From Eledone cirrhosa (lineage: Eukaryota), in contig OZ024742.1 of the NCBI GenBank assembly GCA_964016885.1, positions 346,952,001 to 347,016,000 on the forward strand: a stretch of 64,000 bases of DNA. The letters run 5' to 3'. This document shows, piece by piece, positions 11,460 to 64,000 of the stretch; position 1 is the stretch's first letter, and the number at the start of each line of letters is the position of its first letter. The position numbers and the translations under genes were made by a program. The notes under the pieces are model-generated. The model ran no database searches. It was given only the letters and a program-made list of their open reading frames with translations, and was not told the DNA's origin.

Positions 11460-11461
<2 letters not shown>

Positions 11462-11932: not shown

Positions 11933-11937
11933 GTTTC

Positions 11938-12038
<101 letters not shown>

Positions 12039-12461: not shown

Positions 12462-12605
<144 letters not shown>

Positions 12606-12846: not shown

Positions 12847-13248
12847 TGTAGCAGTGAATGAAATGTATTTTCCTTCTGCGGCGGAATGGTGTTACGGAGG
12901 TAAGTTGGCTGAAGTGTGAGCCAATCGAAACCTTCGGTGCACTAATTGGACTGTCCAGAACTACGTCACCAGGTGAGCGGAGGTAACCAAGAGAGACATT
13001 AGTCTACACGCACCTCTCTTATCGACAAGACCAGGCTACACTCATCGCTGCTAACAACATCTCCATCTTGCAATGAAGCGGACCAAACTACATCCTACAC
13101 ATGTAGATACGACCTGTACCTAATGTATCCGTTCAACATGTACGACTAATAAATAGAGTTACAACATCGATAATGGATTTAGTCAATGTTCTAAATGCCT
13201 TCTGATTTCTATTATGTATACCAAGAATTGACCCTAAAACCCGTTATA
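12847..13248 (+). repeat. LTR 1 (402 bp, left boundary of array)
   Basis: Similarity to internal copies begins exactly at TG 12847. CCAAT ~12921, AATAAA 13148-13153; ends GTTATA two bases before the PBS. The 3' end is inferred from the PBS. Confidence 0.85.
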
Positions 13249-13250
13249 AA

Positions 13251-13265
13251 TGGTGACCCGAACGT
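13251..13265 (+). promoter_or_regulatory. Primer binding site, tRNA-Trp-like (repeated in every unit)
   Basis: TGGTGACCCGAACGT versus the complement of the eukaryotic tRNA-Trp 3' end TGGTGACCCCGACGT (13/15). Confidence 0.75.
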
Positions 13266-13890
13266 TTAAGGACATCAACACAGAAGAAACCACATCTTTC
13301 CGTTGCAACGAACACATCAACATTTCGCATCCCCCCCCCCCCAAAAAAAAACAAAGCCACTCGCCTTTTCTCGGGGTATGTACGCGATTAGCTTGAGTCC
13401 TAATATGTATTTGATATATTGTCTTATTGTTACTAAATCTGCACATCACACCTTCACTTTCTAACATCACCGAACACATGCGTTAATACAAAAATCTTAT
13501 TTTTTCCTCTCAATTTCTGATTGGGCGACGCTATAAAAAAAACAAAAAAAAAAACAAAAAAAAAACTGTTGGCGCCGATAGCCAGTCAGAGCAAGATGGC
13601 CGACTTCCGTCTTCTTCAGCTGTTTTCCCGCCAAAATGACGGAGGCAACGCCATTTTGAAAAGTACACAAAAAGAAAAAAAAAAAAAAGAAAATAATAGG
13701 ACAAAGATAAATCATAATTTTTTTTTTTAAAGCTTGACGTTTTTCCCTCCAACATTGTTTTTGATATATTTTTCTTTTTCTGTCTTTCACTCGGATTATA
13801 TTTTTTCTTGGCCTGAATTTTCACTTTTGTCTCGGTGACAAGTGCAGAGTTGTCCTTTCTTTGCCCTTTGCTTTTACATCAGTATACACA

Positions 13891-14799
13891 ATGGGTAGCA
13901 CTTCATTGCCACCGTTTACCGGTGACGTCACTGTCTGGTTCGCCCAGATAGAAGCACATTTCACAGCGAATAACATCACCAGTGACCACAGACAGTTAAA
14001 TCTCCTGTTAAGCGCTTTTCCAGCGTCATTGACGTCGGTCGTCAAAGACTTAATTACAGATCCTCGCCCTGGGGCCACCTATGAGAGCGTGAAGCTCGAA
14101 GTGTTGCGGCGGACCACATTGTCCGCAGAAAAAAAATTTCAGACGCTCGTCAATGACGAACATTTGGGTGATCGGACGCCCACACAACTACTGCGTCGGA
14201 TGAGAGAGCTGGCGGAAGATGCCCCAGCTGACAGTGCCCTCCTTAGACAGCTTTTTGTCTCAAGGCTACCCCCCGGAGTTCAGGCGATCTTAGCGCCCAT
14301 GATGGAGGCTGCTCCTGTCGACCAGCTAGCGGCTTCGGCCGACAGGGTTATGAGTGTCATCGGACACCCAGCCTCATTTGCCCCCTTCCAGGCACCTCAG
14401 CCACCGGCTGCGGTCAATCCGTTCTCTCCTGCCTCCTTCCAGGCACCCCAGCCACCGGCTGCGGTCAATCCGTTCGCTCCTGTCTCCTTCAATGCATCCC
14501 AGCCGCCGACTGCGGTCGCTTCCTTCACTCCAGCGGCTGCCAGTTATACCGACCAGTCACTTGCAAATGCAGCAATGCTGCAAGCAATAGAGCAGCTAAC
14601 CAAGGAAGTGAGAAAACTAAGCACTCACAGGGCTCATTCGCCCAGACGCCGTTTCCAGAGCCGTTCACCCTCGCCACGACGCCGTCACACAGGCAGTTCA
14701 GGTTTGTGTTACTACCACAGCCGTTTTGGCGCAGCAGCACGCTCCTGTAAACAGCCTTGTACATTTTCGGACCAGGGAAACAGATTTCAGGAGACCTGA
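13891..14799 (+). CDS. gag: Gag, copy 1 (302 aa from first ATG)
   Basis: N-terminal LPPF...WFAQIEAHF and [14 protein letters not shown] capsid-like motifs; C-terminal C-X2-H-X9-C-X3-C ([18 protein letters not shown]). Confidence 0.9.
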
Positions 14800-17700
14800 G
14801 CACGGCACAGTCTCCTCTGACCCTCCCTAATAACCGTGTGTTTTTCATCACAGACACTGAGTCGCAAGCACGTTGTCTGATCGACACCGGCGCGGCTTGT
14901 AGCATTTGGCCGCTAAAACTTCTCAAAGAGAAGCCCCAACTCTCAACCGTCTCTCTGCAAGCAGTAAACCAGTCACCGATCCCCACGTACGGTCAGATTT
15001 CTCGTTCTTTGAACCTGGAATTGCGTAGAGATTTCACGTGGATCTTCACTGTTGCTGATCTGCCTTACCCCATCCTAGGCTCAGATTTCCTGCACCACTA
15101 TAACTTGATAGTGGATATGCGCAGACGCCGGTTGTTGGATGCCAACACAGAACTGTCTGTGCCGGGTACCAGATCGACTGTCTCGTCGGTCAGCCCGGTC
15201 TTCTTTATCGCTGCTACAGAAAATCCTTACCAATCACTTTTGCATTCCTTCCCGGAATTAACAAATTTGAATTTTGTGATGAGTGAGCCTACTCACTCCA
15301 CCAAGCACCACATTGAAACATCCGGAGCTCCTGTGTTTTCGCGCCCTCGCCGTTTCTCTGCTGAGAAACTGAAGGCCGCAAAGGCTGAATTCAATCACAT
15401 GCTGCAGCTCGGGATCATTCGCCCATCCTCAAGCCCGTGGGCCGCACCCTTGCATTTGGTACCAAAGCGTTCCGGTGATTGGCGTCCCACTGGGGACTTT
15501 CGCCGGTTAAATGCAATGACGGTACCCGACCGCTACCCGATACCACACATACAGGATTTTGCATCTTCGCTGCATGGATGCAACATATTCTCCAAATTGG
15601 ATTTGGTCAAAGCATACCACCAAATCCCGGTGAACCCGGCAGACATACCTAAAACTGCAGTAACAACTCCATTTGGAGCGTTTGAATTTTTGACCATGCC
15701 TTTCGGTTTGCGAAACGCAGCCAGCACGTTCCAACGATTTATGGATGAAGTTGTGCGCGATTTAGACTTCGTGTACAACTACATCGACGACATTCTTGTG
15801 GCAAGTGCCTCACCTGAGGAACATGTCAATCACCTCCGTCTCCTGTTCGAGAGATTTCAAAAATACCAAGTGAGAATTAATCCGGCAAAATGTGTTTTCG
15901 GTGCTTCCTCACTTGTCTTCTTGGGCCATGTCATCAGCCCAGAAGGAATTTCGCCACTACCTGATAAAGTGAAAGCGGTACAAGACCTCCAACCACCCAC
16001 TTCACTTCGTCAACTACGACATTTCCTTGGGCTACTGAACTATTACAGGCGCTTTATCCCACACTGTGCGGATCTCCTGTCTCCTCTGTCCGACCTGTTA
16101 CGTAACAGGAAAAAGAAGAACGATTCCATTTCATTGGACACGAATCAGCTAAAAGCCTTCGACGAAGTGAAGCGGAAGCTTGCGGAGACATCACTGCTTG
16201 CACATCCTGTGTCTGGTGCCCAGTTTTCACTGGTTGTTGATGCATCAGGCACAGCTGTAGGTGCAGTACTGCAACAACATCACCAACAACAGTTACAACC
16301 TCTTGCCTACTTTTCTAAACAGCTGAAGCCTGCAGAAACACGGTATAGCACATTCGGCCGTGAACTCTTGGCTATGTACCTTGCAGTGAAACACTTTCGG
16401 CATTCACTGGAGGGTCGCCAATTTGTTATATACACTGACCACCGTCCGCTTACGTTCGCACTGCGTTCTAAGCCGGACAAATATTCACCTCGCGAAACTC
16501 GCCACTTGGACTTCGTTTCGCAATTTACCAGCGATATCCGACACATCTCTGGTGAACAGAATGCGGCGGCAGATGCACTGTCTCGCCTCCCAATTAATTC
16601 CCTGTCATCGCCAGCGGAAATCGACCTCCAACGAATGGCCACAGAACAACCACCTCTGGATACTTTGGACCTCTCGTCTTCTGAATTTGCAACTGGCAAA
16701 TTTGCATATCTGCCTGTGCCCACTTCGGACACACAGATTATCTGCGACACCTCGACAGATGCACCTCGCCCTCTAGTGCCAGTGACTCATCGTCGAGCAG
16801 TTTTCGACACCTTGCACGGTCTGGCACACCCTGGAATATCGACCACAGTGAAGCTCATTTCGGCTAGATTCTTCTGGCCTAATATGAGGCGTGACATCAC
16901 TGCCTGGACACGTTCCTGCCTATCCTGCCAAAAGTCAAAGGTGCACAAACACATCCGCGCACCCCTTGGAACTTTCAGCACTCCAGACGCTAGGTTCAGC
17001 CATGTCCATATAGATCTTGTCGGACCATGGCCGGTCAGCCGAGGATTTACATACCTCCTGACCTGCATAGATCGCTTCACACGTTGGCCTGAGGCCATTC
17101 CTTTAAGTGACATTTCGGCGGAATCTGTGGCGCGAGCTCTAGTATCGGGTTGGATATCGCGTTACGGAGTTCCAGCCACTATCACCACTGACCGCGGTGG
17201 ACAATTTGAGTCACACCTTTTCCGAGAGCTTTCAAGGATCCTGGGAATGCAACGCATTCGAACGACCAGCTACCATCCAGCTTCTAACGGAATGATTGAA
17301 CGCTTCCACCGCCAATTGAAAGCCGCACTGCGCGCTTATCCGGATCAGCAGCGGTGGAGCGAATATGTACCAATTGTCCTCCTGGGCTGTCGTGCAGCCA
17401 TCAAGGAAGATCTAGGCTACTCCCCCGCCGAGTTGGTTTACGGAGTGCCTATATCTCTGCCTGGTCAGATGTTAGCTCCATTGGACCTACCAGCAACAGA
17501 CCCAGCTCTGTATGTGAGCAGACTGCAATCATATTTCAGCAATCTTCCGCCTATGCACCCTCGCCAACAGACAATCAAATCTTCGGTCCCGAAAGACATT
17601 GCTTCATGGACCCACGTCTTTTTACGAAAGGACGCCGTGAGAGCTCCTCTCATGCCACCTTATACCGGTCCCTATCGCGTGCTTGAGCGCACAGATAAGC

Positions 17701-17936
17701 TATTCACCTTAGACATTGGGGGTAAAAAAGAGACTGTGTCCATTGACAGGGTAAAACGGGCCTATACAGACACTCTCACACAAGAGCCCCATTTTCCCCC
17801 CACATACACCTGGCATCAGCCAAGCCACAATACACATATAACATCGCACACACCTACACCTACATATGTCACCACCACACGTAGCGGTCGGCGAGTACAT
17901 TGGCCCAAGAAGCTTTGCAAGACTCTTTATATATGA
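14757..17936 (+). CDS. pol: Pol polyprotein PR-RT-RNaseH-IN, copy 1 (likely expressed by -1 frameshift from gag)
   Basis: Protease DTGA; RT MPFGL..A and YIDD; RNase H DASG..RELLA..TDH..ADALSR; integrase H-H-C-C, D,D(35)E and GPY motif. Uninterrupted. Confidence 0.95.
14775..14839 (+). promoter_or_regulatory. Predicted -1 ribosomal frameshift signal (G GGA AAC + stem-loop/pseudoknot), present in every unit
   Basis: X XXY YYZ heptamer in the gag frame at 14775-14781; pol is in the -1 frame. Stem AGGAGAC(14789-95)/GTCTCCT(14810-16); loop GCACGG(14800-05) is complementary to CCGTGT(14834-39). Confidence 0.75.
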
Positions 17937-18145: not shown

Positions 18146-18158
18146 AAGCAGGGGGTGA
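18146..18158 (+). promoter_or_regulatory. Polypurine tract (before each internal LTR)
   Basis: AAGCAGGGGGTGA immediately precedes the LTR-initial TG. Confidence 0.75.
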
Positions 18159-18560
18159 TGTAGCAGTGAATGAAATGTATTTTCCTTCTGCGGCGGAATG
18201 GTGTTACGGAGGTAAGTTGGCTGAAGTGTGAGCCAATCGAAACATTCGGTGCACTAATTGGACTGTCCAGAACTACGTCACCAGGTGAGCGGAGGTAACC
18301 AAGAGAGACATTAGTCTACACGCACCTCTCTTATCGACAAGACCAGGCTACACTCATCGCTGCTAACAACATCTCCATCTTGCAATGAAGCGGACCAAAC
18401 TACATCCTACACATGTAGATACGACCTGTACCTAATGTATCCGTTCAACATGTACGACTAATAAATAGAGTTACAACATCGATAATGGATTTAGTCAATG
18501 TTCTAAATGCCTTCTGATTTCTATTATGTATACCAAGAATTGACCCTAAAACCCGTTATA
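18159..18560 (+). repeat. LTR 2 (shared by copies 1 and 2)
   Basis: Preceded by PPT, followed by PBS; near-identical to LTR 1. Confidence 0.85.
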
Positions 18561-19207
18561 AATGGTGACCCGAACGTTTAAGGACATCAACACAGAAAAA
18601 AACCACATATTTCCGTTGCAACGAACACATCAACATTTCGCATCCCCCCCCCCCCCCCCAAAAAAAAAACAAAGCCACTCGCCTTTTCTCGGGGTATGTA
18701 CGCGATTAGCTTGAGTCCTAATATGTATTTGATATATTGTCTTATTGTTACTAAATCTGCACATCACACCTTCACTTTCTAACATCACCGAACACATGCG
18801 TTAATACAAAAATCTTATTTTTTCCTCTCAATTTCTGATTGGGCGACGCTATAAAAAAAACAAAAAAAAAACAAAAAAAAAACTGTTGGCGCCGATAGCC
18901 AGTCAGAGCAAGATGGCCGACTTCCGTCTTCTTCAGCTGTTTTCCCGCCAAAATGACGGAGGCAACGCCATTTTGAAAAGTACACAAAAAGAAAAAAAAA
19001 AAAAAGAAAATAATAGGACAAAGATAAATCATAATTTTTTTTTTTAAAGCTTGACGTTTTTCCCTCCAACATTGTTTTTGATATATTTTTCTTTTTCTGT
19101 CTTTCACTCGGATTATATTTTTTCTTGGCCTGAATTTTCACTTTTGTCTCGGTGACAAGTGCAGAGTTGTCCTTTCTTTGCCCTTTGCTTTTACATCAGT
19201 ATACACA

Positions 19208-20116
19208 ATGGGTAGCACTTCATTGCCACCGTTTACCGGTGACGTCACTGTCTGGTTCGCCCAGATAGAAGCACATTTCACAGCGAATAACATCACCAGT
19301 GACCACAGACAGTTAAATCTCCTGTTAAGCGCTTTTCCAGCGTCATTGACGTCGGTCGTCAAAGACTTAATTACAGATCCTCGCCCTGGGGCCACCTATG
19401 AGAGCGTGAAGCTCGAAGTGTTGCGGCGGACCACATTGTCCGCAGAAAAAAAATTTCAGACGCTCGTCAATGACGAACATTTGGGTGATCGGACGCCCAC
19501 ACAACTACTGCGTCGGATGAGAGAGCTGGCGGAAGATGCCCCAGCTGACAGTGCCCTCCTTAGACAGCTTTTTGTCTCAAGGCTACCCCCCGGAGTTCAG
19601 GCGATCTTAGCGCCCATGATGGAGGCTGCTCCTGTCGACCAGCTAGCGGCTTCGGCCGACAGGGTTATGAGTGTCATCGGACACCCAGCCTCATTTGCCC
19701 CCTTCCAGGCACCTCAGCCACCGGCTGCGGTCAATCCGTTCTCTCCTGCCTCCTTCCAGGCACCCCAGCCACCGGCTGCGGTCAATCCGTTCGCTCCTGT
19801 CTCCTTCAATGCATCCCAGCCGCCGACTGCGGTCGCTTCCTTCACTCCAGCGGCTGCCAGTTATACCGACCAGTCACTTGCAAATGCAGCAATGCTGCAA
19901 GCAAAAGAGCAGCTAACCAATGAAGTGAGAAAACTAAGCACTCACAGGGCTCATTCGCCCAGACGCCGTTTCCAGAGCCGTTCACCCTCGCCACGACGCC
20001 GTCACACAGGCAGTTCAGGTTTGTGTTACTACCACAGCCGTTTTGGCGCAGCAGCACGCTCCTGTAAACAGCCTTGTACATTTTCGGACCAGGGAAACAG
20101 ATTTCAGGAGACCTGA
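19208..20116 (+). CDS. gag: Gag, copy 2
   Basis: As copy 1; variant QAKEQLTNE. Confidence 0.9.
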
Positions 20117-23100
20117 GCACGGCACAGTCTCCTCTGACCCTCCCTAATAACCGTGTGTTTTTCATCACAGACACTGAGTCGCAAGCACGTTGTCTGATCG
20201 ACACCGGCGCGGCTTGTAGCATTTGGCCGCTAAAACTTCTCAAAGAGAAGCCCCAACTCTCAACCGTCTCTCTGCAAGCAGTAAACCAGTCACCGATCCC
20301 CACGTACGGTCAGATTTCTCGTTCTTTGAACCTGGAATTGCGTAGAGATTTCACGTGGATCTTCACTGTTGCTGATCTGCCTTACCCCATCCTAGGCTCA
20401 GATTTCCTGCACCACTATAACTTGATAGTGGATATGCGCAGACGCCGGTTGTTGGATGCCAACACAGAACTGTCTGTGCCGGGTACCAGATCGACTGTCT
20501 CGTCGGTCAGCCCGGTCTTCTTTATCGCTGCTACAGAAAATCCTTACCAATCACTTTTGCATTCCTTCCCGGAATTAACAAATTTGAATTTTGTGATGAG
20601 TGAGCCTACTCACTCCACCAAGCACCACATTGAAACATCCGGAGCTCCTGTGTTTTCGCGCCCTCGCCGTTTCTCTGCTGAGAAACTGAAGGCCGCAAAG
20701 GCTGAATTCAATCACATGCTGCAGCTCGGGATCATTCGCCCATCCTCAAGCCCGTGGGCCGCACCCTTGCATTTGGTACCAAAGCGTTCCGGTGATTGGC
20801 GTCCCACTGGGGACTTTCGCCGGTTAAATGCAATGACGGTACCCGACCGCTACCCGATACCACACATACAGGATTTTGCATCTTCGCTGCATGGATGCAA
20901 CATATTCTCCAAATTGGATTTGGTCAAAGCATACCACCAAATCCCGGTGAACCCGGCAGACATACCTAAAACTGCAGTAACAACTCCATTTGGAGCGTTT
21001 GAATTTTTGACCATGCCTTTCGGTTTGCGAAACGCAGCCAGCACGTTCCAACGATTTATGGATGAAGTTGTGCGCGATTTAGACTTCGTGTACAACTACA
21101 TCGACGACATTCTTGTGGCAAGTGCCTCACCTGAGGAACATGTCAATCACCTCCGTCTCCTGTTCGAGAGATTTCAAAAATACCAAGTGAGAATTAATCC
21201 GGCAAAATGTGTTTTCGGTGCTTCCTCACTTGTCTTCTTGGGCCATGTCATCAGCCCAGAAGGAATTTCGCCACTACCTGATAAAGTGAAAGCGGTACAA
21301 GACCTCCAACCACCCACTTCACTTCGTCAACTACGACATTTCCTTGGGCTACTGAACTATTACAGGCGCTTTATCCCACACTGTGCGGATCTCCTGTCTC
21401 CTCTGTCCGACCTGTTACGTAACAGGAAAAAGAAGAACGATTCCATTTCATTGGACACGAATCAGCTAAAAGCCTTCGACGAAGTGAAGCGGAAGCTTGC
21501 GGAGACATCACTGCTTGCACATCCTGTGTCTGGTGCCCAGTTTTCACTGGTTGTTGATGCATCAGGCACAGCTGTAGGTGCAGTACTGCAACAACATCAC
21601 CAACAACAGTTACAACCTCTTGCCTACTTTTCTAAACAGCTGAAGCCTGCAGAAACACGGTATAGCACATTCGGCCGTGAACTCTTGGCTATGTACCTTG
21701 CAGTGAAACACTTTCGGCATTCACTGGAGGGTCGCCAATTTGTTATATACACTGACCACCGTCCGCTTACGTTCGCACTGCGTTCTAAGCCGGACAAATA
21801 TTCACCTCGCGAAACTCGCCACTTGGACTTCGTTTCGCAATTTACCAGCGATATCCGACACATCTCTGGTGAACAGAATGCGGCGGCAGATGCACTGTCT
21901 CGCCTCCCAATTAATTCCCTGTCATCGCCAGCGGAAATCGACCTCCAACGAATGGCCACAGAACAACCACCTCTGGATACTTTGGACCTCTCGTCTTCTG
22001 AATTTGCAACTGGCAAATTTGCATATCTGCCTGTGCCCACTTCGGACACACAGATTATCTGCGACACCTCGACAGATGCACCTCGCCCTCTAGTGCCAGT
22101 GACTCATCGTCGAGCAGTTTTCGACACCTTGCACGGTCTGGCACACCCTGGAATATCGACCACAGTGAAGCTCATTTCGGCTAGATTCTTCTGGCCTAAT
22201 ATGAGGCGTGACATCACTGCCTGGACACGTTCCTGCCTATCCTGCCAAAAGTCAAAGGTGCACAAACACATCCGCGCACCCCTTGGAACTTTCAGCACTC
22301 CAGACGCTAGGTTCAGCCATGTCCATATAGATCTTGTCGGACCATGGCCGGTCAGCCGAGGATTTACATACCTCCTGACCTGCATAGATCGCTTCACACG
22401 TTGGCCTGAGGCCATTCCTTTAAGTGACATTTCGGCGGAATCTGTGGCGCGAGCTCTAGTATCGGGTTGGATATCGCGTTACGGAGTTCCAGCCACTATC
22501 ACCACTGACCGCGGTGGACAATTTGAGTCACACCTTTTCCGAGAGCTTTCAAGGATCCTGGGAATGCAACGCATTCGAACGACCAGCTACCATCCAGCTT
22601 CTAACGGAATGATTGAACGCTTCCACCGCCAATTGAAAGCCGCACTGCGCGCTTATCCGGATCAGCAGCGGTGGAGCGAATATGTACCAATTGTCCTCCT
22701 GGGCTGTCGTGCAGCCATCAAGGAAGATCTAGGCTACTCCCCCGCCGAGTTGGTTTACGGAGTGCCTATATCTCTGCCTGGTCAGATGTTAGCTCCATTG
22801 GACCTACCAGCAACAGACCCAGCTCTGTATGTGAGCAGACTGCAATCATATTTCAGCAATCTTCCGCCTATGCACCCTCGCCAACAGACAATCAAATCTT
22901 CGGTCCCGAAAGACATTGCTTCATGGACCCACGTCTTTTTACGAAAGGACGCCGTGAGAGCTCCTCTCATGCCACCTTATACCGGTCCCTATCGCGTGCT
23001 TGAGCGCACAGATAAGCTATTCACCTTAGACATTGGGGGTAAAAAAGAGACTGTGTCCATTGACAGGGTAAAACGGGCCTATACAGACACTCTCACACAA

Positions 23101-23253
23101 GAGCCCCATTTTCCCCCCACATACACCTGGCATCAGCCAAGCCACAATACACATATAACATCGCACACACCTACACCTACATATGTCACCACCACACGTA
23201 GCGGTCGGCGAGTACATTGGCCCAAGAAGCTTTGCAAGACTCTTTATATATGA
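20074..23253 (+). CDS. pol: Pol, copy 2
   Basis: Intact 1059-codon frame with all motifs. Confidence 0.95.
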
Positions 23254-23475
23254 ACTATGTTATTTACAGCAATCTTCTTGGAGTTTGCTCCGCCCTTGTA
23301 TTTGTATTAAATGTATGAACTAAGGTGAACATTACACTATTTCTGACTTTCCTGTAATATGAACATTTCTTTATCAGTGATATATTTTATTGTGTTTACT
23401 ATTATATAGTACTTTTTCTTTCATTCAACTGCTACCCTTATTTCTCTGTCGGCTGTAAGCCTAAGCAGGGGGTGA

Positions 23476-23877
23476 TGTAGCAGTGAATGAAATGTATTTT
23501 CCTTCTGCGGCGGAATGGTGTTACGGAGGTAAGTTGGCTGAAGTGTGAGCCAATCGAAACATTCGGTGCACTAATTGGACTGTCCAGAACTACGTCACCA
23601 GGTGAGCGGAGGTAACCAAGAGAGACATTAGTCTACACGCACCTCTCTTATCGACAAGACCAGGCTACACTCATCGCTGCTAACAACATCTCCATCTTGC
23701 AATGAAGCGGACCAAACTACATCCTACACATGTAGATACGACCTGTACCTAATGTATCCGTTCAACATGTACGACTAATAAATAGAGTTACAACATCGAT
23801 AATGGATTTAGTCAATGTTCTAAATGCCTTCTGATTTCTATTATGTATACCAAGAATTGACCCTAAAACCCGTTATA
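23476..23877 (+). repeat. LTR 3 (shared)
   Basis: PPT-TG start; PBS follows. Confidence 0.85.
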
Positions 23878-49770: not shown

Positions 49771-50044
49771 CGGTCGGCGAGTACATTGGCCCAAGAAGCT
49801 TTGCAAGACTCTTTATATATGAACTATGTTATTTACAGCAATCTTCTTGGAGTTTGCTCCGCCCTTGTATTTGTATTAAATGTATGAACTAAGGTGAACA
49901 TTACACTATTTCTGACTTTCCTGTAATATGAACATTTCTTTATCAGTGATATATTTTATTGTGTTTACTATTATATAGTACTTTTTCTTTCATTCAACTG
50001 CTACCCTTATTTCTCTGTCGGCTGTAAGCCTAAGCAGGGGGTGA

Positions 50045-52002: not shown

Positions 52003-55000
52003 GCACGGCACAGTCTCCTCTGACCCTCCCTAATAACCGTGTGTTTTTCATCACAGACACTGAGTCGCAAGCACGTTGTCTGATCGACACCGGCGCGGCT
52101 TGTAGCATTTGGCCGCTAAAACTTCTCAAAGAGAAGCCCCAACTCTCAACCGTCTCTCTGCAAGCAGTAAACCAGTCACCGATCCCCACGTACGGTCAGA
52201 TTTCTCGTTCTTTGAACCTGGAATTGCGTAGAGATTTCACGTGGATCTTCACTGTTGCTGATCTGCCTTACCCCATCCTAGGCTCAGATTTCCTGCACCA
52301 CTATAACTTGATAGTGGATATGCGCAGACGCCGGTTGTTGGATGCCAACACAGAACTGTCTGTGCCGGGTACCAGATCGACTGTCTCGTCGGTCAGCCCG
52401 GTCTTCTTTATCGCTGCTACAGAAAATCCTTACCAATCACTTTTGCATTCCTTCCCGGAATTAACAAATTTGAATTTTGTGATGAGTGAGCCTACTCACT
52501 CCACCAAGCACCACATTGAAACATCCGGAGCTCCTGTGTTTTCGCGCCCTCGCCGTTTCTCTGCTGAGAAACTGAAGGCCGCAAAGGCTGAATTCAATCA
52601 CATGCTGCAGCTCGGGATCATTCGCCCATCCTCAAGCCCGTGGGCCGCACCCTTGCATTTGGTACCAAAGCGTTCCGGTGATTGGCGTCCCACTGGGGAC
52701 TTTCGCCGGTTAAATGCAATGACGGTACCCGACCGCTACCCGATACCACACATACAGGATTTTGCATCTTCGCTGCATGGATGCAACATATTCTCCAAAT
52801 TGGATTTGGTCAAAGCATACCACCAAATCCCGGTGAACCCGGCAGACATACCTAAAACTGCAGTAACAACTCCATTTGGAGCGTTTGAATTTTTGACCAT
52901 GCCTTTCGGTTTGCGAAACGCAGCCAGCACGTTCCAACGATTTATGGATGAAGTTGTGCGCGATTTAGACTTCGTGTACAACTACATCGACGACATTCTT
53001 GTGGCAAGTGCCTCACCTGAGGAACATGTCAATCACCTCCGTCTCCTGTTCGAGAGATTTCAAAAATACCAAGTGAGAATTAATCCGGCAAAATGTGTTT
53101 TCGGTGCTTCCTCACTTGTCTTCTTGGGCCATGTCATCAGCCCAGAAGGAATTTCGCCACTACCTGATAAAGTGAAAGCGGTACAAGACCTCCAACCACC
53201 CACTTCACTTCGTCAACTACGACATTTCCTTGGGCTACTGAACTATTACAGGCGCTTTATCCCACACTGTGCGGATCTCCTGTCTCCTCTGTCCGACCTG
53301 TTACGTAACAGGAAAAAGAAGAACGATTCCATTTCATTGGACACGAATCAGCTAAAAGCCTTCGACGAAGTGAAGCGGAAGCTTGCGGAGACATCACTGC
53401 TTGCACATCCTGTGTCTGGTGCCCAGTTTTCACTGGTTGTTGATGCATCAGGCACAGCTGTAGGTGCAGTACTGCAACAACATCACCAACAACAGTTACA
53501 ACCTCTTGCCTACTTTTCTAAACAGCTGAAGCCTGCAGAAACACGGTATAGCACATTCGGCCGTGAACTCTTGGCTATGTACCTTGCAGTGAAACACTTT
53601 CGGCATTCACTGGAGGGTCGCCAATTTGTTATATACACTGACCACCGTCCGCTTACGTTCGCACTGCGTTCTAAGCCGGACAAATATTCACCTCGCGAAA
53701 CTCGCCACTTGGACTTCGTTTCGCAATTTACCAGCGATATCCGACACATCTCTGGTGAACAGAATGCGGCGGCAGATGCACTGTCTCGCCTCCCAATTAA
53801 TTCCCTGTCATCGCCAGCGGAAATCGACCTCCAACGAATGGCCACAGAACAACCACCTCTGGATACTTTGGACCTCTCGTCTTCTGAATTTGCAACTGGC
53901 AAATTTGCATATCTGCCTGTGCCCACTTCGGACACACAGATTATCTGCGACACCTCGACAGATGCACCTCGCCCTCTAGTGCCAGTGACTCATCGTCGAG
54001 CAGTTTTCGACACCTTGCACGGTCTGGCACACCCTGGAATATCGACCACAGTGAAGCTCATTTCGGCTAGATTCTTCTGGCCTAATATGAGGCGTGACAT
54101 CACTGCCTGGACACGTTCCTGCCTATCCTGCCAAAAGTCAAAGGTGCACAAACACATCCGCGCACCCCTTGGAACTTTCAGCACTCCAGACGCTAGGTTC
54201 AGCCATGTCCATATAGATCTTGTCGGACCATGGCCGGTCAGCCGAGGATTTACATACCTCCTGACCTGCATAGATCGCTTCACACGTTGGCCTGAGGCCA
54301 TTCCTTTAAGTGACATTTCGGCGGAATCTGTGGCGCGAGCTCTAGTATCGGGTTGGATATCGCGTTACGGAGTTCCAGCCACTATCACCACTGACCGCGG
54401 TGGACAATTTGAGTCACACCTTTTCCGAGAGCTTTCAAGGATCCTGGGAATGCAACGCATTCGAACGACCAGCTACCATCCAGCTTCTAACGGAATGATT
54501 GAACGCTTCCACCGCCAATTGAAAGCCGCACTGCGCGCTTATCCGGATCAGCAGCGGTGGGGCGAATATGTACCAATTGTCCTCCTGGGCTGTCGTGCAG
54601 CCATCAAGGAAGATCTAGGCTACTCCCCCGCCGAGTTGGTTTACGGAGTGCCTATATCTCTGCCTGGTCAGATGTTAGCTCCATTGGACCTACCAGCAAC
54701 AGACCCAGCTCTGTATGTGAGCAGACTGCAATCATATTTCAGCAATCTTCCGCCTATGCACCCTCGCCAACAGACAATCAAATCTTCGGTCCCGAAAGAC
54801 ATTGCTTCATGGACCCACGTCTTTTTACGAAAGGACGCCGTGAGAGCTCCTCTCATGCCACCTTATACCGGTCCCTATCGCGTGCTTGAGCGCACAGATA
54901 AGCTATTCACCTTAGACATTGGGGGTAAAAAAGAGACTGTGTCCATTGACAGGGTAAAACGGGCCTATACAGACACTCTCACACAAGAGCCCCATTTTCC

Positions 55001-55139
55001 CCCCACATACACCTGGCATCAGCCAAGCCACAATACACATATAACATCGCACACACCTACACCTACATATGTCACCACCACACGTAGCGGTCGGCGAGTA
55101 CATTGGCCCAAGAAGCTTTGCAAGACTCTTTATATATGA
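51960..55139 (+). CDS. pol: Pol, copy 8
   Basis: Intact; private S>G at 54561. Confidence 0.95.
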
Positions 55140-55361
55140 ACTATGTTATTTACAGCAATCTTCTTGGAGTTTGCTCCGCCCTTGTATTTGTATTAAATGT
55201 ATGAACTAAGGTGAACATTACACTATTTCTGACTTTCCTGTAATATGAACATTTCTTTATCAGTGATATATTTTATTGTGTTTACTATTATATAGTACTT
55301 TTTCTTTCATTCAACTGCTACCCTTATTTCTCTGTCGGCTGTAAGCCTAAGCAGGGGGTGA

Positions 55362-55763
55362 TGTAGCAGTGAATGAAATGTATTTTCCTTCTGCGGCGGA
55401 ATGGTGTTACGGAGGTAAGTTGGCTGAAGTGTGAGCCAATCGAAACCTTCGGTGCACTAATTGGACTGTCCAGAACTACGTCACCAGGTGAGCGGAGGTA
55501 ACCAAGAGAGACATTAGTCTACACGCACCTCTCTTATCGACAAGACCAGGCTACACTCATCGCTGCTAACAACATCTCCATCTTGCAATGAAGCGGACCA
55601 AACTACATCCTACACATGTAGATACGACCTGTACCTAATGTATCCGTTCAACATGTACGACTAATAAATAGAGTTACAACATCGATAATGGATTTAGTCA
55701 ATGTTCTAAATGCCTTCTGATTTCTATTATGTATACCAAGAATTGACCCTAAAACCCGTTATA
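55362..55763 (+). repeat. LTR 9 (shared)
   Basis: PPT-TG start; PBS follows. Confidence 0.85.
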
Positions 55764-56403
55764 AATGGTGACCCGAACGTTTAAGGACATCAACACAGAA
55801 AAAAACCACATATTTCCGTTGCAACGAACACATCAACATTTCTCATCCCCCCCCCCCCCCCCCCCCCCCAAAAAAACAAAGCCACTCGCCTTTTCTCGGG
55901 GTATGTACGCGATTAGCTTGAGTCCTAATATGTATTTGATATATTGTCTTATTGTTACTAAATCTGCACATCACACCTTCACTTTCTAACATCACCGAAC
56001 ACATGCGTTAATACAAAAATCTTATTTTTTCCTCTCAATTTCTGATTGGGCGACGCTATAAAAAAAACAAAAAAAAAACTGTTGGCGCCGATAGCCAGTC
56101 AGAGCAAGATGGCCGACTTCCGTCTTCTTCAGCTGTTTTCCCGCCAAAATGACGGAGGCAACGCCATTTTGAAAAGTACACAAAAAGAAAAAAAAAAAAA
56201 AGAAAATAATAGGACAAAGATAAATCATAATTTTTTTTTTTAAAGCTTGACGTTTTTCCCTCCAACATTGTTTTTGATATATTTTTCTTTTTCTGTCTTT
56301 CACTCGGATTATATTTTTTCTTGGCCTGAATTTTCACTTTTGTCTCGGTGACAAGTGCAGAGTTGTCCTTTCTTTGCCCTTTGCTTTTACATCAGTATAC
56401 ACA

Positions 56404-57312
56404 ATGGGTAGCACTTCATTGCCACCGTTTACCGGTGACGTCACTGTCTGGTTCGCCCAGATAGAAGCACATTTCACAGCGAATAACATCACCAGTGACC
56501 ACAGACAGTTAAATCTCCTGTTAAGCGCTTTTCCAGCGTCATTGACGTCGGTCGTCAAAGACTTAATTACAGATCCTCGCCCTGGGGCCACCTATGAGAG
56601 CGTGAAGCTCGAAGTGTTGCGGCGGACCACATTGTCCGCAGAAAAAAAATTTCAGACGCTCGTCAATGACGAACATTTGGGTGATCGGACGCCCACACAA
56701 CTACTGCGTCGGATGAGAGAGCTGGCGGAAGATGCCCCAGCTGACAGTGCCCTCCTTAGACAGCTTTTTGTCTCAAGGCTACCCCCCGGAGTTCAGGCGA
56801 TCTTAGCGCCCATGATGGAGGCTGCTCCTGTCGACCAGCTAGCGGCTTCGGCCGACAGGGTTATGAGTGTCATCGGACACCCAGCCTCATTTGCCCCCTT
56901 CCAGGCACCTCAGCCACCGGCTGCGGTCAATCCGTTCTCTCCTGCCTCCTTCCAGGCACCCCAGCCACCGGCTGCGGTCAATCCGTTCGCTCCTGTCTCC
57001 TTCAATGCATCCCAGCCGCCGACTGCGGTCGCTTCCTTCACTCCAGCGGCTGCCAGTTATACCGACCAGTCACTTGCAAATGCAGCAATGCTGCAAGCAA
57101 TAGAGCAGCTAACCAAGGAAGTGAGAAAACTAAGCACTCACAGGGCTCATTCGCCCAGACGCCGTTTCCAGAGCCGTTCACCCTCGCCACGACGCCGTCA
57201 CACAGGCAGTTCAGGTTTGTGTTACTACCACAGCCGTTTTGGCGCAGCAGCACGCTCCTGTAAACAGCCTTGTACATTTTCGGACCAGGGAAACAGATTT
57301 CAGGAGACCTGA
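56404..57312 (+). CDS. gag: Gag, copy 9
   Basis: As copy 1. Confidence 0.9.
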
Positions 57313-60300
57313 GCACGGCACAGTCTCCTCTGACCCTCCCTAATAACCGTGTGTTTTTCATCACAGACACTGAGTCGCAAGCACGTTGTCTGATCGACAC
57401 CGGCGCGGCTTGTAGCATTTGGCCGCTAAAACTTCTCAAAGAGAAGCCCCAACTCTCAACCGTCTCTCTGCAAGCAGTAAACCAGTCACCGATCCCCACG
57501 TACGGTCAGATTTCTCGTTCTTTGAACCTGGAATTGCGTAGAGATTTCACGTGGATCTTCACTGTTGCTGATCTGCCTTACCCCATCCTAGGCTCAGATT
57601 TCCTGCACCACTATAACTTGATAGTGGATATGCGCAGACGCCGGTTGTTGGATGCCAACACAGAACTGTCTGTGCCGGGTACCAGATCGACTGTCTCGTC
57701 GGTCAGCCCGGTCTTCTTTATCGCTGCTACAGAAAATCCTTACCAATCACTTTTGCATTCCTTCCCGGAATTAACAAATTTGAATTTTGTGATGAGTGAG
57801 CCTACTCACTCCACCAAGCACCACATTGAAACATCCGGAGCTCCTGTGTTTTCGCGCCCTCGCCGTTTCTCTGCTGAGAAACTGAAGGCCGCAAAGGCTG
57901 AATTCAATCACATGCTGCAGCTCGGGATCATTCGCCCATCCTCAAGCCCGTGGGCCGCACCCTTGCATTTGGTACCAAAGCGTTCCGGTGATTGGCGTCC
58001 CACTGGGGACTTTCGCCGGTTAAATGCAATGACGGTACCCGACCGCTACCCGATACCACACATACAGGATTTTGCATCTTCGCTGCATGGATGCAACATA
58101 TTCTCCAAATTGGATTTGGTCAAAGCATACCACCAAATCCCGGTGAACCCGGCAGACATACCTAAAACTGCAGTAACAACTCCATTTGGAGCGTTTGAAT
58201 TTTTGACCATGCCTTTCGGTTTGCGAAACGCAGCCAGCACGTTCCAACGATTTATGGATGAAGTTGTGCGCGATTTAGACTTCGTGTACAACTACATCGA
58301 CGACATTCTTGTGGCAAGTGCCTCACCTGAGGAACATGTCAATCACCTCCGTCTCCTGTTCGAGAGATTTCAAAAATACCAAGTGAGAATTAATCCGGCA
58401 AAATGTGTTTTCGGTGCTTCCTCACTTGTCTTCTTGGGCCATGTCATCAGCCCAGAAGGAATTTCGCCACTACCTGATAAAGTGAAAGCGGTACAAGACC
58501 TCCAACCACCCACTTCACTTCGTCAACTACGACATTTCCTTGGGCTACTGAACTATTACAGGCGCTTTATCCCACACTGTGCGGATCTCCTGTCTCCTCT
58601 GTCCGACCTGTTACGTAACAGGAAAAAGAAGAACGATTCCATTTCATTGGACACGAATCAGCTAAAAGCCTTCGACGAAGTGAAGCGGAAGCTTGCGGAG
58701 ACATCACTGCTTGCACATCCTGTGTCTGGTGCCCAGTTTTCACTGGTTGTTGATGCATCAGGCACAGCTGTAGGTGCAGTACTGCAACAACATCACCAAC
58801 AACAGTTACAACCTCTTGCCTACTTTTCTAAACAGCTGAAGCCTGCAGAAACACGGTATAGCACATTCGGCCGTGAACTCTTGGCTATGTACCTTGCAGT
58901 GAAACACTTTCGGCATTCACTGGAGGGTCGCCAATTTGTTATATACACTGACCACCGTCCGCTTACGTTCGCACTGCGTTCTAAGCCGGACAAATATTCA
59001 CCTCGCGAAACTCGCCACTTGGACTTCGTTTCGCAATTTACCAGCGATATCCGACACATCTCTGGTGAACAGAATGCGGCGGCAGATGCACTGTCTCGCC
59101 TCCCAATTAATTCCCTGTCATCGCCAGCGGAAATCGACCTCCAACGAATGGCCACAGAACAACCACCTCTGGATACTTTGGACCTCTCGTCTTCTGAATT
59201 TGCAACTGGCAAATTTGCATATCTGCCTGTGCCCACTTCGGACACACAGATTATCTGCGACACCTCGACAGATGCACCTCGCCCTCTAGTGCCAGTGACT
59301 CATCGTCGAGCAGTTTTCGACACCTTGCACGGTCTGGCACACCCTGGAATATCGACCACAGTGAAGCTCATTTCGGCTAGATTCTTCTGGCCTAATATGA
59401 GGCGTGACATCACTGCCTGGACACGTTCCTGCCTATCCTGCCAAAAGTCAAAGGTGCACAAACACATCCGCGCACCCCTTGGAACTTTCAGCACTCCAGA
59501 CGCTAGGTTCAGCCATGTCCATATAGATCTTGTCGGACCATGGCCGGTCAGCCGAGGATTTACATACCTCCTGACCTGCATAGATCGCTTCACACGTTGG
59601 CCTGAGGCCATTCCTTTAAGTGACATTTCGGCGGAATCTGTGGCGCGAGCTCTAGTATCGGGTTGGATATCGCGTTACGGAGTTCCAGCCACTATCACCA
59701 CTGACTGCGGTGGACAATTAAAGTCACACCTTTTCCGAGAGCTTTCAAGGATCCTGGGAATGCAACGCATTCGAACGACCAGCTACCATCCAGCTTCTAA
59801 CGGAATGATTGAACGCTTCCACCGCCAATTGAAAGCCGCACTGCGCGCTTATCCGGATCAGCAGCGGTGGAGCGAATATGTACCAATTGTCCTCCTGGGC
59901 TGTCGTGCAGCCATCAAGGAAGATCTAGGCTACTCCCCCGCCGAGTTGGTTTACGGAGTGCCTATATCTCTGCCTGGTCAGATGTTAGCTCCATTGGACC
60001 TACCAGCAACAGACCCAGCTCTGTATGTGAGCAGACTGCAATCATATTTCAGCAATCTTCCGCCTATGCACCCTCGCCAACAGACAATCAAATCTTCGGT
60101 CCCGAAAGACATTGCTTCATGGACCCACGTCTTTTTACGAAAGGACGCCGTGAGAGCTCCTCTCATGCCACCTTATACCGGTCCCTATCGCGTGCTTGAG
60201 CGCACAGATAAGCTATTCACCTTAGACATTGGGGGTAAAAAAGAGACTGTGTCCATTGACAGGGTAAAACGGGCCTATACAGACACTCTCACACAAGAGC

Positions 60301-60449
60301 CCCATTTTCCCCCCACATACACCTGGCATCAGCCAAGCCACAATACACATATAACATCGCACACACCTACACCTACATATGTCACCACCACACGTAGCGG
60401 TCGGCGAGTACATTGGCCCAAGAAGCTTTGCAAGACTCTTTATATATGA
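57270..60449 (+). CDS. pol: Pol, copy 9
   Basis: Open frame; integrase TDRGGQFES changed to TDCGGQLKS (59706, 59720-59721). Confidence 0.93.
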
Positions 60450-60671
60450 ACTATGTTATTTACAGCAATCTTCTTGGAGTTTGCTCCGCCCTTGTATTTG
60501 TATTAAATGTATGAACTAAGGTGAACATTACACTATTTCTGACTTTCCTGTAATATGAACATTTCTTTATCAGTGATATATTTTATTGTGTTTACTATTA
60601 TATAGTACTTTTTCTTTCATTCAACTGCTACCCTTATTTCTCTGTCGGCTGTAAGCCTAAGCAGGGGGTGA

Positions 60672-61073
60672 TGTAGCAGTGAATGAAATGTATTTTCCTT
60701 CTGCGGCGGAATGGTGTTACGGAGGTAAGTTGGCTGAAGTGTGAGCCAATCGAAACCTTCGGTGCACTAATTGGACTGTCCAGAACTACGTCACCAGGTG
60801 AGCGGAGGTAACCAAGAGAGACATTAGTCTACACGCACCTCTCTTATCGACAAGACCAGGCTACACTCATCGCTGCTAACAACATCTCCATCTTGCAATG
60901 AAGCGGACCAAACTACATCCTACACATGTAGATACGACCTGTACCTAATGTATCCGTTCAACATGTACGACTAATAAATAGAGTTACAACATCGATAATG
61001 GATTTAGTCAATGTTCTAAATGCCTTCTGATTTCTATTATGTATACCAAGAATTGACCCTAAAACCCGTTATA
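60672..61073 (+). repeat. LTR 10 (shared)
   Basis: PPT-TG start; PBS follows. Confidence 0.85.
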
Positions 61074-61701
61074 AATGGTGACCCGAACGTTTAAGGACAT
61101 CAACACAGAAAAAAACCACATATTTCCGTTGCAACGAACACATCAACATTTCGCATCCCCCCCCCCCCAAAAAACAAAGCCACTCGCCTTTTCTCGGGGT
61201 ATGTACGCGATTAGCTTGAGTCCTAATATGTATTTGATATATTGTCTTATTGTTACTAAATCTGCACATCACACCTTCACTTTCTAACATCACCGAACAC
61301 ATGCGTTAATACAAAAATCTTATTTTTTCCTCTCAATTTCTGATTGGGCGACGCTATAAAAAAAACAAAAAAAAAACTGTTGGCGCCGATAGCCAGTCAG
61401 AGCAAGATGGCCGACTTCCGTCTTCTTCAGCTGTTTTCCCGCCAAAATGACGGAGGCAACGCCATTTTGAAAAGTACACAAAAAGAAAAAAAAAAAAAAG
61501 AAAATAATAGGACAAAGATAAATCATAATTTTTTTTTTTAAAGCTTGACGTTTTTCCCTCCAACATTGTTTTTGATATATTTTTCTTTTTCTGTCTTTCA
61601 CTCGGATTATATTTTTTCTTGGCCTGAATTTTCACTTTTGTCTCGGTGACAAGTGCAGAGTTGTCCTTTCTTTGCCCTTTGCTTTTACATCAGTATACAC
61701 A

Positions 61702-62610
61702 ATGGGTAGCACTTCATTGCCACCGTTTACCGGTGACGTCACTGTCTGGTTCGCCCAGATAGAAGCACATTTCACAGCGAATAACATCACCAGTGACCAC
61801 AGACAGTTAAATCTCCTGTTAAGCGCTTTTCCAGCGTCATTGACGTCGGTCGTCAAAGACTTAATTACAGATCCTCGCCCTGGGGCCACCTATGAGAGCG
61901 TGAAGCTCGAAGTGTTGCGGCGGACCACATTGTCCGCAGAAAAAAAATTTCAGACGCTCGTCAATGACGAACATTTGGGTGATCGGACGCCCACACAACT
62001 ACTGCGTCGGATGAGAGAGCTGGCGGAAGATGCCCCAGCTGACAGTGCCCTCCTTAGACAGCTTTTTGTCTCAAGGCTACCCCCCGGAGTTCAGGCGATC
62101 TTAGCGCCCATGATGGAGGCTGCTCCTGTCGACCAGCTAGCGGCTTCGGCCGACAGGGTTATGAGTGTCATCGGACACCCAGCCTCATTTGCCCCCTTCC
62201 AGGCACCTCAGCCACCGGCTGCGGTCAATCCGTTCTCTCCTGCCTCCTTCCAGGCACCCCAGCCACCGGCTGCGGTCAATCCGTTCGCTCCTGTCTCCTT
62301 CAATGCATCCCAGCCGCCGACTGCGGTCGCTTCCTTCACTCCAGCGGCTGCCAGTTATACCGACCAGTCACTTGCAAATGCAGCAATGCTGCAAGCAATA
62401 GAGCAGCTAACCAAGGAAGTGAGAAAACTAAGCACTCACAGGGCTCATTCGCCCAGACGCCGTTTCCAGAGCCGTTCACCCTCGCCACGACGCCGTCACA
62501 CAGGCAGTTCAGGTTTGTGTTACTACCACAGCCGTTTTGGCGCAGCAGCACGCTCCTGTAAACAGCCTTGTACATTTTCGGACCAGGGAAACAGATTTCA
62601 GGAGACCTGA
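61702..62610 (+). CDS. gag: Gag, copy 10
   Basis: As copy 1. Confidence 0.9.
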
Positions 62611-64000
62611 GCACGGCACAGTCTCCTCTGACCCTCCCTAATAACCGTGTGTTTTTCATCACAGACACTGAGTCGCAAGCACGTTGTCTGATCGACACCG
62701 GCGCGGCTTGTAGCATTTGGCCGCTAAAACTTCTCAAAGAGAAGCCCCAACTCTCAACCGTCTCTCTGCAAGCAGTAAACCAGTCACCGATCCCCACGTA
62801 CGGTCAGATTTCTCGTTCTTTGAACCTGGAATTGCGTAGAGATTTCACGTGGATCTTCACTGTTGCTGATCTGCCTTGCCCCATCCTAGGCTCAGATTTC
62901 CTGCACCACTATAACTTGATAGTGGATATGCGCAGACGCCGGTTGTTGGATGCCAACACAGAACTGTCTGTGCCGGGTACCAGATCGACTGTCTCGTCGG
63001 TCAGCCCGGTCTTCTTTATCGCTGCTACAGAAAATCCTTACCAATCACTTTTGCATTCCTTCCCGGAATTAACAAATTTGAATTTTGTGATGAGTGAGCC
63101 TACTCACTCCACCAAGCACCACATTGAAACATCCGGAGCTCCTGTGTTTTCGCGCCCTCGCCGTTTCTCTGCTGAGAAACTGAAGGCCGCAAAGGCTGAA
63201 TTCAATCACATGCTGCAGCTCGGGATCATTCGCCCATCCTCAAGCCCGTGGGCCGCACCCTTGCATTTGGTACCAAAGCGTTCCGGTGATTGGCGTCCCA
63301 CTGGGGACTTTCGCCGGTTAAATGCAATGACGGTACCCGACCGCTACCCGATACCACACATACAGGATTTTGCATCTTCGCTGCATGGATGCAACATATT
63401 CTCCAAATTGGATTTGGTCAAAGCATACCACCAAATCCCGGTGAACCCGGCAGACATACCTAAAACTGCAGTAACAACTCCATTTGGAGCGTTTGAATTT
63501 TTGACCATGCCTTTCGGTTTGCGAAACGCAGCCAGCACGTTCCAACGATTTATGGATGAAGTTGTGCGCGATTTAGACTTCGTGTACAACTACATCGACG
63601 ACATTCTTGTGGCAAGTGCCTCACCTGAGGAACATGTCAATCACCTCCGTCTCCTGTTCGAGAGATTTCAAAAATACCAAGTGAGAATTAATCCGGCAAA
63701 ATGTGTTTTCGGTGCTTCCTCACTTGTCTTCTTGGGCCATGTCATCAGCCCAGAAGGAATTTCGCCACTACCTGATAAAGTGAAAGCGGTACAAGACCTC
63801 CAACCACCCACTTCACTTCGTCAACTACGACATTTCCTTGGGCTACTGAACTATTACAGGCGCTTTATCCCACACTGTGCGGATCTCCTGTCTCCTCTGT
63901 CCGACCTGTTACGTAACAGGAAAAAGAAGAACGATTCCATTTCATTGGACACGAATCAGCTAAAAGCCTTCGACGAAGTGAAGCGGAAGCTTGCGGAGAC
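62568..64000 (+). CDS. pol: Pol, copy 10 (partial, runs off window)
   Basis: Colinear with the other copies through PR and RT; private Y>C at 62878. Confidence 0.9.

Follow-up and report, generated by a model that had tools for sequence, protein, structure and literature searches.

Tandems of LTR retrotransposons in which neighbouring copies share a single LTR are, according to published descriptions, frequent in plants and Drosophila; they also occur in yeasts and, as a megasatellite, in kangaroos. The kangaroo case, in which the kangaroo endogenous retrovirus (KERV) forms the megasatellite, was reportedly presented by Koga et al. in 2023. Recombination between LTRs is the mechanism proposed for the tandems of Drosophila, plants and kangaroos, and the conversion of an element into a satellite is usually inferred from dimers or else from arrays that are already old and homogenised. 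The array analyzed here, found in a window of 64,000 nucleotides (the whole stretch of DNA under study), is intermediate between those. For the CsRn1 clade of retrotransposons, the available part of PMC2582038 gives a CHCC gag knuckle replacing CCHC, a tRNA-Trp PBS, LTR ends of the form TGT...ATA or TGT...AAA, and gag and pol that are fused, in frame or overlapping in -1; the CsRN1 clade was present in nine of the 12 cephalopod species examined (PMC6238403).

Layout of the array and identity of the element

As assembled, 10 LTR-carrying units stand head to tail from 12847 to 64000 on the forward strand, nine of them complete (U1-U9, 5301-5322 bp) and the tenth (U10) partial, with 3329 bp up to the window edge, which bears out the unit count, orientation and lengths given by the first-pass annotation (Table 1). 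Across the array, self-BLAST returned diagonals about 5.31 kb apart with identities of 99.4-99.7%, and the LTRs start at 12847, 18159, 23476, 28798, 34115, 39426, 44727, 50045, 55362 and 60672. At all nine internal junctions an identical polypurine tract lies immediately 5' of a single LTR and an identical PBS immediately 3' of it; a spacer, a second LTR or an internal TSD was found at none of the nine. The alternation of LTR and internal region with one LTR per junction, which marks a shared-LTR tandem, was thus seen at 9/9 junctions, as had been claimed, and the argument that insertions made by integrase are unable to produce this layout holds. Non-element DNA precedes the first LTR only, all ten LTR copies in the window lie within the array and are 99.75-100% identical, and the array, which begins with the LTR at 12847, continues past the right edge of the window. 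The units diverge by about four substitutions per 5.3 kb (99.9% substitution identity). Fewer than 20 mutation events lie between them and almost every unit can be distinguished, the nine complete units falling into eight distinct types, with U2 letter-identical to U4 and the different U3 in between.

Table 1. Features of the array (coordinates are those of the window)
Feature	Position	Strand	Remark
Array U1-U10, LTR + internal	12847..64000	+	self-BLAST, LTR/junction positions; open at right window edge
First LTR, 402-404 bp	12847..13250	+	TGT...ATA or ...AAA; AATAAA at LTR position 302
Primer-binding site	13251..13268	+	first 9 nt = tRNA-Trp-type PBS of CsRn1-like elements, then diverges
Three-difference cluster in leader	13283..13296	+	U1 vs U2-U10
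Poly-C/poly-A run	13331..13351	+	C tract 9 to 23 between units; A14, T11, A8 runs constant
gag of U1, 302 aa	13891..14799	+	DUF7041 + CHCC knuckle C-x2-H-x9-C-x3-C
Candidate -1 slippery heptamer	14775..14781	+	gag frame, within gag/pol overlap; inferred from X XXY YYZ pattern
U1 pol frame (1061 aa between stops)	14751..17936	+	protease DTG, RT YIDD, RNase H, integrase HHCC, core, GPY; env absent
Polypurine tract	18146..18158	+	adjoins shared LTR
U2	18159..23475	+	same letters as U4
U3	23476..28797	+	pol codon 202 has the family-wide allele in this unit alone; conserved His598 likewise changed only here
U4	28798..34114	+	same letters as U2
U5	34115..39425	+	4-bp leader deletion in common with U6
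U6	39426..44726	+	4-bp deletion (as U5) + 11-bp deletion (as U9, U10)
U7	44727..50044	+	pol frameshift downstream of integrase core
U8	50045..55361	+	single private coding change
U9	55362..60671	+	three clustered integrase-core changes, residues 815, 819, 820
U10	60672..64000	+	ended by window edge within RT/RNase H

Pfam placed RVT_1 at residues 237-395, RNase H at 464-592 and integrase at 676-843 of the pol frame, with DTG at 43-48, and the best relative among solved structures was Ty3 Gag-Pol (E 4e-109). The order protease-RT-RNase H-integrase, together with LTRs, PBS and PPT, is that of Ty3/gypsy elements. The Gag knuckle is CHCC (P0001 315-332), with no CCHC, the LTR ends read TGT...ATA/AAA and gag and pol overlap in -1, all of which are features of the CsRn1 clade. 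Named protein matches at 48-61% were from flatworm, nematode and arachnid, several with a CHCC knuckle. Judged by its sequence, the element appears to carry the traits typical of CsRn1, a clade within Ty3/gypsy. The PBS agrees with the published tRNA-Trp motif over 9 nt and differs in the later letters; a sibling lineage with an identical LTR end, seen in public-run contigs, carries the published Trp-type form. A single metagenome match (n=1) to the LTR-end/PBS motif was rejected as a chance 22-nt match with no surrounding element. Among viral contigs seven pattern matches yielded no relatives, Rfam (positions 1-18600) gave no matches and ARAGORN (whole window) no tRNA. The left flank contains microsatellites and dispersed repeats, a long satellite being absent, and it resembles cephalopod genomic DNA in appearance.

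The gag frame encodes 302 aa in 10/10 units and the pol frame 1061 aa in eight of the nine complete units, whereas that of U7 has 1044 aa and shifts after residue 1017. The frames had been reported as both open and intact: openness was confirmed for gag in every unit and for pol through the integrase core, but intactness was not, as Phe stands at pol 202 in 9/10 units where Leu is found in 127/127 relatives spanning the site, and in several units residues with little or no variation among relatives are altered. Open frames do not equal intact proteins here, and 'intact' is too strong a term. Within the array, 10 of the 11 substitutions in coding sequence alter the amino acid (75.5% expected under neutrality; probability of at least 10, 0.21), as against 8/30 non-synonymous ones among the differences listed to organism B (Fisher p = 0.0003); therefore, the units have not been filtered for retrotransposition function, and no purifying selection is visible in within-array variation.

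Variant sharing and growth of the array

Four variants are common to two to four units, three of them in non-adjacent units. The first-pass annotation had suggested a concatemer, which might arise before integration in one step, by rolling circle of a 1-LTR circle or by read-through and repeated strand transfer, with conversion following later. Such an origin, put forward for plant tandems in the available parts of PMC11899658 and PMC7215508, would account at once for a single founder and one orientation. However, taken alone it predicts no shared variants, and in simulation the probability of two or more was 0.00015, compared to the four observed. All four gametes are present for two deletions that lie about 75 bp from each other, and after rooting the same holds for two further pairs. 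One conflict involves a slip of 11 bp within an A-rich repeat that may have recurred independently, and the U1 cluster is rooted solely by the fact that run X1 has no C>A row. Since the shared variants are scattered and the four-gamete test fails, the array would not be the product of a one-step rolling circle, and the units appear to have recombined repeatedly. Moreover, cDNA of 51 kb or more lies far above normal particle packaging, and a one-step concatemer requires later recombination anyway, which suffices to build the array; we consider this origin quite improbable. What stands of the concatemer is the unit of LTR plus internal region and, as a good candidate route, unequal crossing-over, whereas a one-step origin as sole cause does not agree with the four shared variants and the four-gamete failures.

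At 14692, 15222 and 17709 the units spanning the site agree with one another and differ from the main contigs of organisms A and B. Because of these common letters and of Phe at pol 202 in 9/10 units, every unit appears to descend from a single founder. On balance, the array is probably a real and very young macrosatellite in which this single insertion was enlarged by unequal exchange and conversion carried out by the host. Following this, one element would have integrated normally into a high-copy host repeat, and its 5' and 3' LTRs would have recombined across misaligned sister chromatids or homologues, giving a dimer in which one LTR is shared. The 5.3-kb units, which may serve as long homologous targets, would then have undergone unequal exchange and gene conversion again and again, so that ten or more units arose and new mutations were passed around among them; for this step the pattern is visible in the variants and the enzyme pathway is presumed. 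The outermost unit would retain the older left end. U1 is the only unit with a differing leader (edge effect). Under amplification as DNA by the host, and not via reverse transcription and integrase, harmful changes would therefore accumulate and spread with nothing to check them.

The identity of U2 and U4 around a different unit and the leader difference restricted to U1 were counted for host exchange, as were the single founder, the lack of a functional filter and the precedent of LTR-LTR recombination proposed for other tandems. Counted against it was that exchange offset by one unit would tend to make neighbours alike, whereas similarity did not rise significantly with proximity in the array (p = 0.10 in the Mantel test, p = 0.26 for adjacent pairs), and also that clustered mutations require an error-prone step, while plain crossing-over gives none. 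Three close pairs of mutations were detected (p = 5e-6), and clustered mutations are seen in U1/U2-10, U2/U4 and U9. In a toy simulation the observed scatter had a probability of 0.79-0.95 under multi-unit unequal exchange, 0.85 under circle re-entry and 0.19 under one-unit offsets, so that the first two were not separated.

In re-entry, 1-LTR circles or linear cDNA of the array or of its founder lineage would recombine singly into resident units independently of integrase. In the Tf1/Ty5-type model of single-strand annealing, each event adds one internal region and one LTR. An identical junction is produced in yeast, according to the accessible text of PMC11042837; any unit may reach any position, which fits the scattered sharing and the 'X-Y-X' order of U2-U3-U4, and error-prone repair at each entry would suit the clustered changes. 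Furthermore, U3 carries at 15354 the family-wide allele found in the main contigs of runs X1, X3 and X5. However, at 15222, which is 132 bp away, U3 has the array letter, which could equally reflect an old allele that was kept or a conversion over a short tract; at the other seven diagnostic sites the main haplotype of run X1 is present in no unit, so the donors would belong to one sub-lineage, and no selection for working proteins was seen, though these could be supplied in trans. Taken together, re-entry is rather unlikely. It is likewise unlikely that the array feeds itself, its own 1-LTR circles or cDNA re-entering by homology without integrase and error-prone repair leaving the mutation clusters. 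If true, this would be a natural animal case of integrase-independent growth of a retrotransposon into a macrosatellite, caught early enough for each event to be still readable, in which copies with impaired enzymes could be amplified.

Public runs and the assembled copy number

The public comparison used short-word contigs and RAD reads, which derive from haplotypes other than that of the array, and left out organisms C, D and E (shares 0.18, 0.14 and 0.08). The main contigs of run X1 differ at seven positions from every unit spanning the site and lack the array letters at eight sites. Given the seven differences and the absence of purifying selection in the array, the earlier proposal of a 'master source' finds no support in the samples examined. 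In run X1 the depth was 629 for the main LTR contig and 317-432 for the main internal contigs, a ratio suggestive of mostly two-LTR copies but confounded by the sibling lineage with the same LTR end (257), and contig depth in this run does not equal copy number; the 227-bp flank is a very high-copy repeat and hence gives no single-copy baseline. In RAD run X9 coverage of the element was thin and patchy, and no RNA run was among the matches listed (11 runs).

A looped single or double element, or the joining of haplotypes or loci, might have inflated the copy number during assembly, with which the eight sites in run X1, the lack of a piece bridging the left junction among the run X1 pieces listed and the identity of U2 and U4 would agree. 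By contrast, the nine complete units comprise eight types, the longest exact repeats in the array (7017 and 5113 bp) are shorter than typical long reads, the differences are mostly substitutions, some of them found in units far apart, and none of the 10 units deviates in the A14, T11 and A8 runs, unlike random consensus error; in addition, one 'private' letter is a genuine family allele. About four substitutions per 5.3 kb together with a longest exact repeat of 7.0 kb argue against an assembler loop, and an artefact is very unlikely.

The array among known tandems

Shared-LTR tandems are well described, and the array stands at the high end in copy number and youth; the layout itself is less unusual than the first-pass annotation implied. 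Such an array can multiply a sub-lineage without selection on proteins, and pipelines keyed to two LTRs and a target duplication would miscount it.

CsRn1, PwRn1 and AgCR, as far as the available part of PMC2582038 describes them, share with this element the CHCC knuckle, the start of the Trp-type PBS, LTR ends of the TGT...ATA/AAA form, ORFs that overlap in -1, a size of about 5.4-5.7 kb and LTRs near 400 bp. However, they are dispersed two-LTR copies with 4-bp target duplications, and the PBS of the array leaves the published motif after 9 nt. The yeast tandems of Tf1/Tf2 and Ty5 are, in the accessible text of PMC11042837, pairs derived from cDNA annealing into a resident copy, a possible route here. 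The Cassandra/TRIM arrays, in the part of PMC7215508 at hand, resemble the locus in their LTR-internal-LTR structure and in the near identity of their units, of which one array has up to 12, but consist of small non-coding elements in contrast to 5.3-kb units with gag and pol. For plant tandem LTR retrotransposons, the available portion of Morales-Diaz et al. (2025, PMC11899658) reports alternating LTRs and internal regions, shared LTRs, gypsy type and highly similar copies ascribed to one insertion, all as found here; the two loci detailed there are dimers and 66 Nipponbare loci measure about 4-87 kb, whereas the present array has at least 10 units with 99.9% substitution identity in an animal-type genome. 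In the same portion of that source, the KERV megasatellite likewise has a whole retroelement as its unit, with its structure kept, LTRs shared and LTR-LTR recombination proposed, but it concerns a retrovirus at marsupial centromeres, whereas the array described here is Ty3/gypsy, spans at least 51 kb and lies beside microsatellite-rich DNA.

Structure of the array and identity of the element

Comparison of the window with itself gave diagonals at steps of about 5.31 kb from 12847 to 64000 (99.4-99.7% identity), and ten LTR starts delimited nine complete units of 5301-5322 bp each and a partial tenth (U1-U10). At all nine internal junctions an identical polypurine tract directly abuts one LTR, followed by an identical primer-binding site (PBS), and unrelated DNA precedes the first LTR. 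Only one site varies among the ten LTRs (99.75-100% identity), and no further LTR copy was found within the window. The gag frame is open in all ten units and pol encodes 1061 aa in eight of the nine complete ones, with a frame shift after residue 1017 in U7. Unit count, single-LTR junctions and open frames were thus as described in the first-pass annotation.

The domain order of Pol (protease, RT, RNase H, integrase) is that of gypsy elements, env is absent, and of the solved relatives Ty3 Gag-Pol ranks best. Gag contains DUF7041 and a CHCC knuckle, pol and gag overlap in the -1 frame, the LTR ends are TGT...ATA or TGT...AAA, and the PBS resembles the tRNA-Trp type over its first 9 nt and then diverges from it. 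Since the knuckle, the -1 overlap and such LTR ends are traits listed, along with a Trp-type PBS, for CsRn1-like elements (PMC2582038), the element likely belongs to the CsRn1 clade, found in nine of 12 cephalopods examined (PMC6238403). The flank is rich in microsatellites and has a cephalopod-like look. The nearest proteins form a 186-member cluster at about 85% identity, with named matches at 48-61%.

The repeat at the left border reached a summed contig depth of about 607,000 in the public run X1 compared to about 350 for the element, which implies that the founder element had inserted into another repeat. The flank also holds what we take to be a Penelope-like element; its open frame had no match in a Pfam search and its relatives, mostly 38-44% identical, are about 700 aa long, indicating 5' truncation.

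Features within the window, with coordinates and strand
Feature	Position	Strand	Details
Minisatellite	2870-3071		45-bp unit, 4.5 copies
Minisatellite	3814-4236		15-bp unit, 28 copies
Presumed Penelope-like element	7865-11342	minus	young; adjoins TA microsatellites
Inverted arms around it	7865-8544 and 10663-11342		680 bp, 99.6% alike
Its open frame	10680-9103		525 aa; RT-like and GIY-YIG-like motifs by eye
Dispersed repeat	12620-12846		very high copy; directly left of array
PBS and leader	13251-13286		X1 and X3 contigs link identical LTR end to published Trp-type PBS and different leader
Leader poly-C run	13331-13351		9 to 23 bases among units, at the matching place in each
Coding region	14104-18158		family in organism B (run X5) at roughly 92-97% identity
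Repeat within gag	14379-14517		51-bp unit x2.7; encodes Pro/Ala-rich linker
Candidate slippery heptamer	14775-14781

Founder and exchange between units

At three positions (14692, 15222 and 17709) the run contigs of organisms A and B share a letter from which all covering units differ, and pol residue 202 is Phe in nine of ten units as compared to Leu in all 127 covering relatives (134 aligned). The letters common to the units, together with Phe202, show that they were copied from one sub-lineage, a single founder, and do not sample the family; part of this signal could arise if the window and organism A come from different populations or species.

Four variants, namely an LTR substitution (U2, U3, U4, U7), a 4-bp deletion (U5, U6), an 11-bp deletion (U6, U9, U10) and two gag substitutions that occur together (U2, U4), are common to two to four units, three of the four in non-adjacent ones. 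A one-step concatemer whose variants were shuffled later is improbable: alone, with 18 independent mutations, it gave two or more shared variants with a simulated P of 0.00015, against the four observed. The variant pattern is recombinant, as the two deletions occur in all four gametes, although the 11-bp slip could arise more than once. Once rooted on relatives, the codon-202 site likewise conflicts with the LTR site and with the leader cluster (13283..13296, three differences setting U1 apart), whose sole rooting is the lack of the C>A difference in X1 among the 40 of 284 entries listed.

The most likely origin, favoured with modest confidence, is one ordinary insertion, from which LTR-LTR recombination would have produced a dimer, followed by rounds of unequal exchange and conversion between units. 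In a toy simulation (1500 accepted runs per model) the observed scatter had P = 0.19 under mostly one-unit unequal exchange and 0.79-0.95 with multi-unit offsets. Circles or cDNA repeatedly entering the array without integrase, an unlikely but appreciable alternative, reproduced it equally (P = 0.85), so that the simulation did not discriminate between this route and multi-unit exchange. Adjacent units were not significantly more similar than distant ones in this ten-unit array. Mutations of one and the same unit group lie at most 20 bp apart in three pairs (p = 5e-6), a clustering that suggests a process beyond simple crossing-over, either error-prone repair synthesis or reverse-transcription errors.

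An artefact or inflated unit count is as improbable as the one-step concatemer. U2 and U4 are the sole identical pair among the complete units, two units differ on average by 4.0 substitutions (7.5e-4 per site, C/A run left out), and no exact repeat exceeds 7017 bp, the next longest being 5113 bp. Lengths of the A14, T11 and A8 runs are constant in all ten units, and hence the array sequence is not noisy; the seemingly private U3 letter at the position matching 15354 is that of the main contigs of X1, X3 and X5, unlike the product of random error. As far as sequence can tell, the array is probably not an assembly loop. The G-rich strand at the variable leader C run might promote recombination or slippage as a hot spot.

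Selection within the array and the family outside it

Within the array, ten of 11 coding substitutions are non-synonymous (unselected expectation 75.5% of possible changes, P = 0.21), whereas 22 of 30 coding differences from organism B are synonymous among those listed (30 entries with an organism-B letter from 40 of 284, one overlap entry dropped; Fisher p = 0.0003 for the non-synonymous shares). Purifying selection is lacking and the units have passed no filter for function. U9 is changed at integrase residues 819 (Phe in 123/123 relatives) and 820, and U3 at His598 (found in 112/122); the earlier term 'intact' therefore covers no more than the open frames.

The runs compared consist of short-word contigs or RAD reads and contain at best 0.82 of the words. 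X1 main contigs differ from every covering unit at at least seven positions (12985, 13393, 13785, 14692, 14769, 15222 and 17709, among 40 of 284 entries listed); thus, the runs seem to come from another individual than that assembled, or the array haplotype was lost as a minor variant. The main family haplotype of X1 is not that of the array, and loose contig ends at the LTR start mark other insertion sites (two contigs in X1, one in X3). The family is therefore dispersed there and seemingly not derived from the array, and the samples compared lend no support to the proposed role of the locus as a master source. Contigs joining the common LTR to the Trp-type PBS and different leader (depth 257 in X1, 76 in X3) represent a sibling or non-autonomous lineage. 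In organism B, coding differences are mostly synonymous, and most of the LTR and leader had no match at 90%.

Comparison with known tandems

Among sources covered mostly by title or opening of the abstract, subscription journals aside, no coding array of ten units with shared LTRs was found, either for a CsRn1-like element or in a cephalopod. Shared-LTR tandems as such are known: 266 candidates in rice are termed widespread (PMC11899658), most LTR families form them in Drosophila (bioRxiv 10.1101/158386), and Tf1 tandem formation is Rad52-dependent (PMC11042837). Five Gypsy copies were duplicated along with surrounding satellite in a 2026 centromere atlas (10.64898/2026.09.17.752431). Judged on sequence, the present array would rank high among such tandems in both copy number and youth, making it a good locus to test how such arrays grow. 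Cassandra reaches up to 12 units but is non-coding (PMC7215508), in contrast to the ten or more coding units here, and the nearest precedent, by its title and description in PMC11899658, is the KERV megasatellite.
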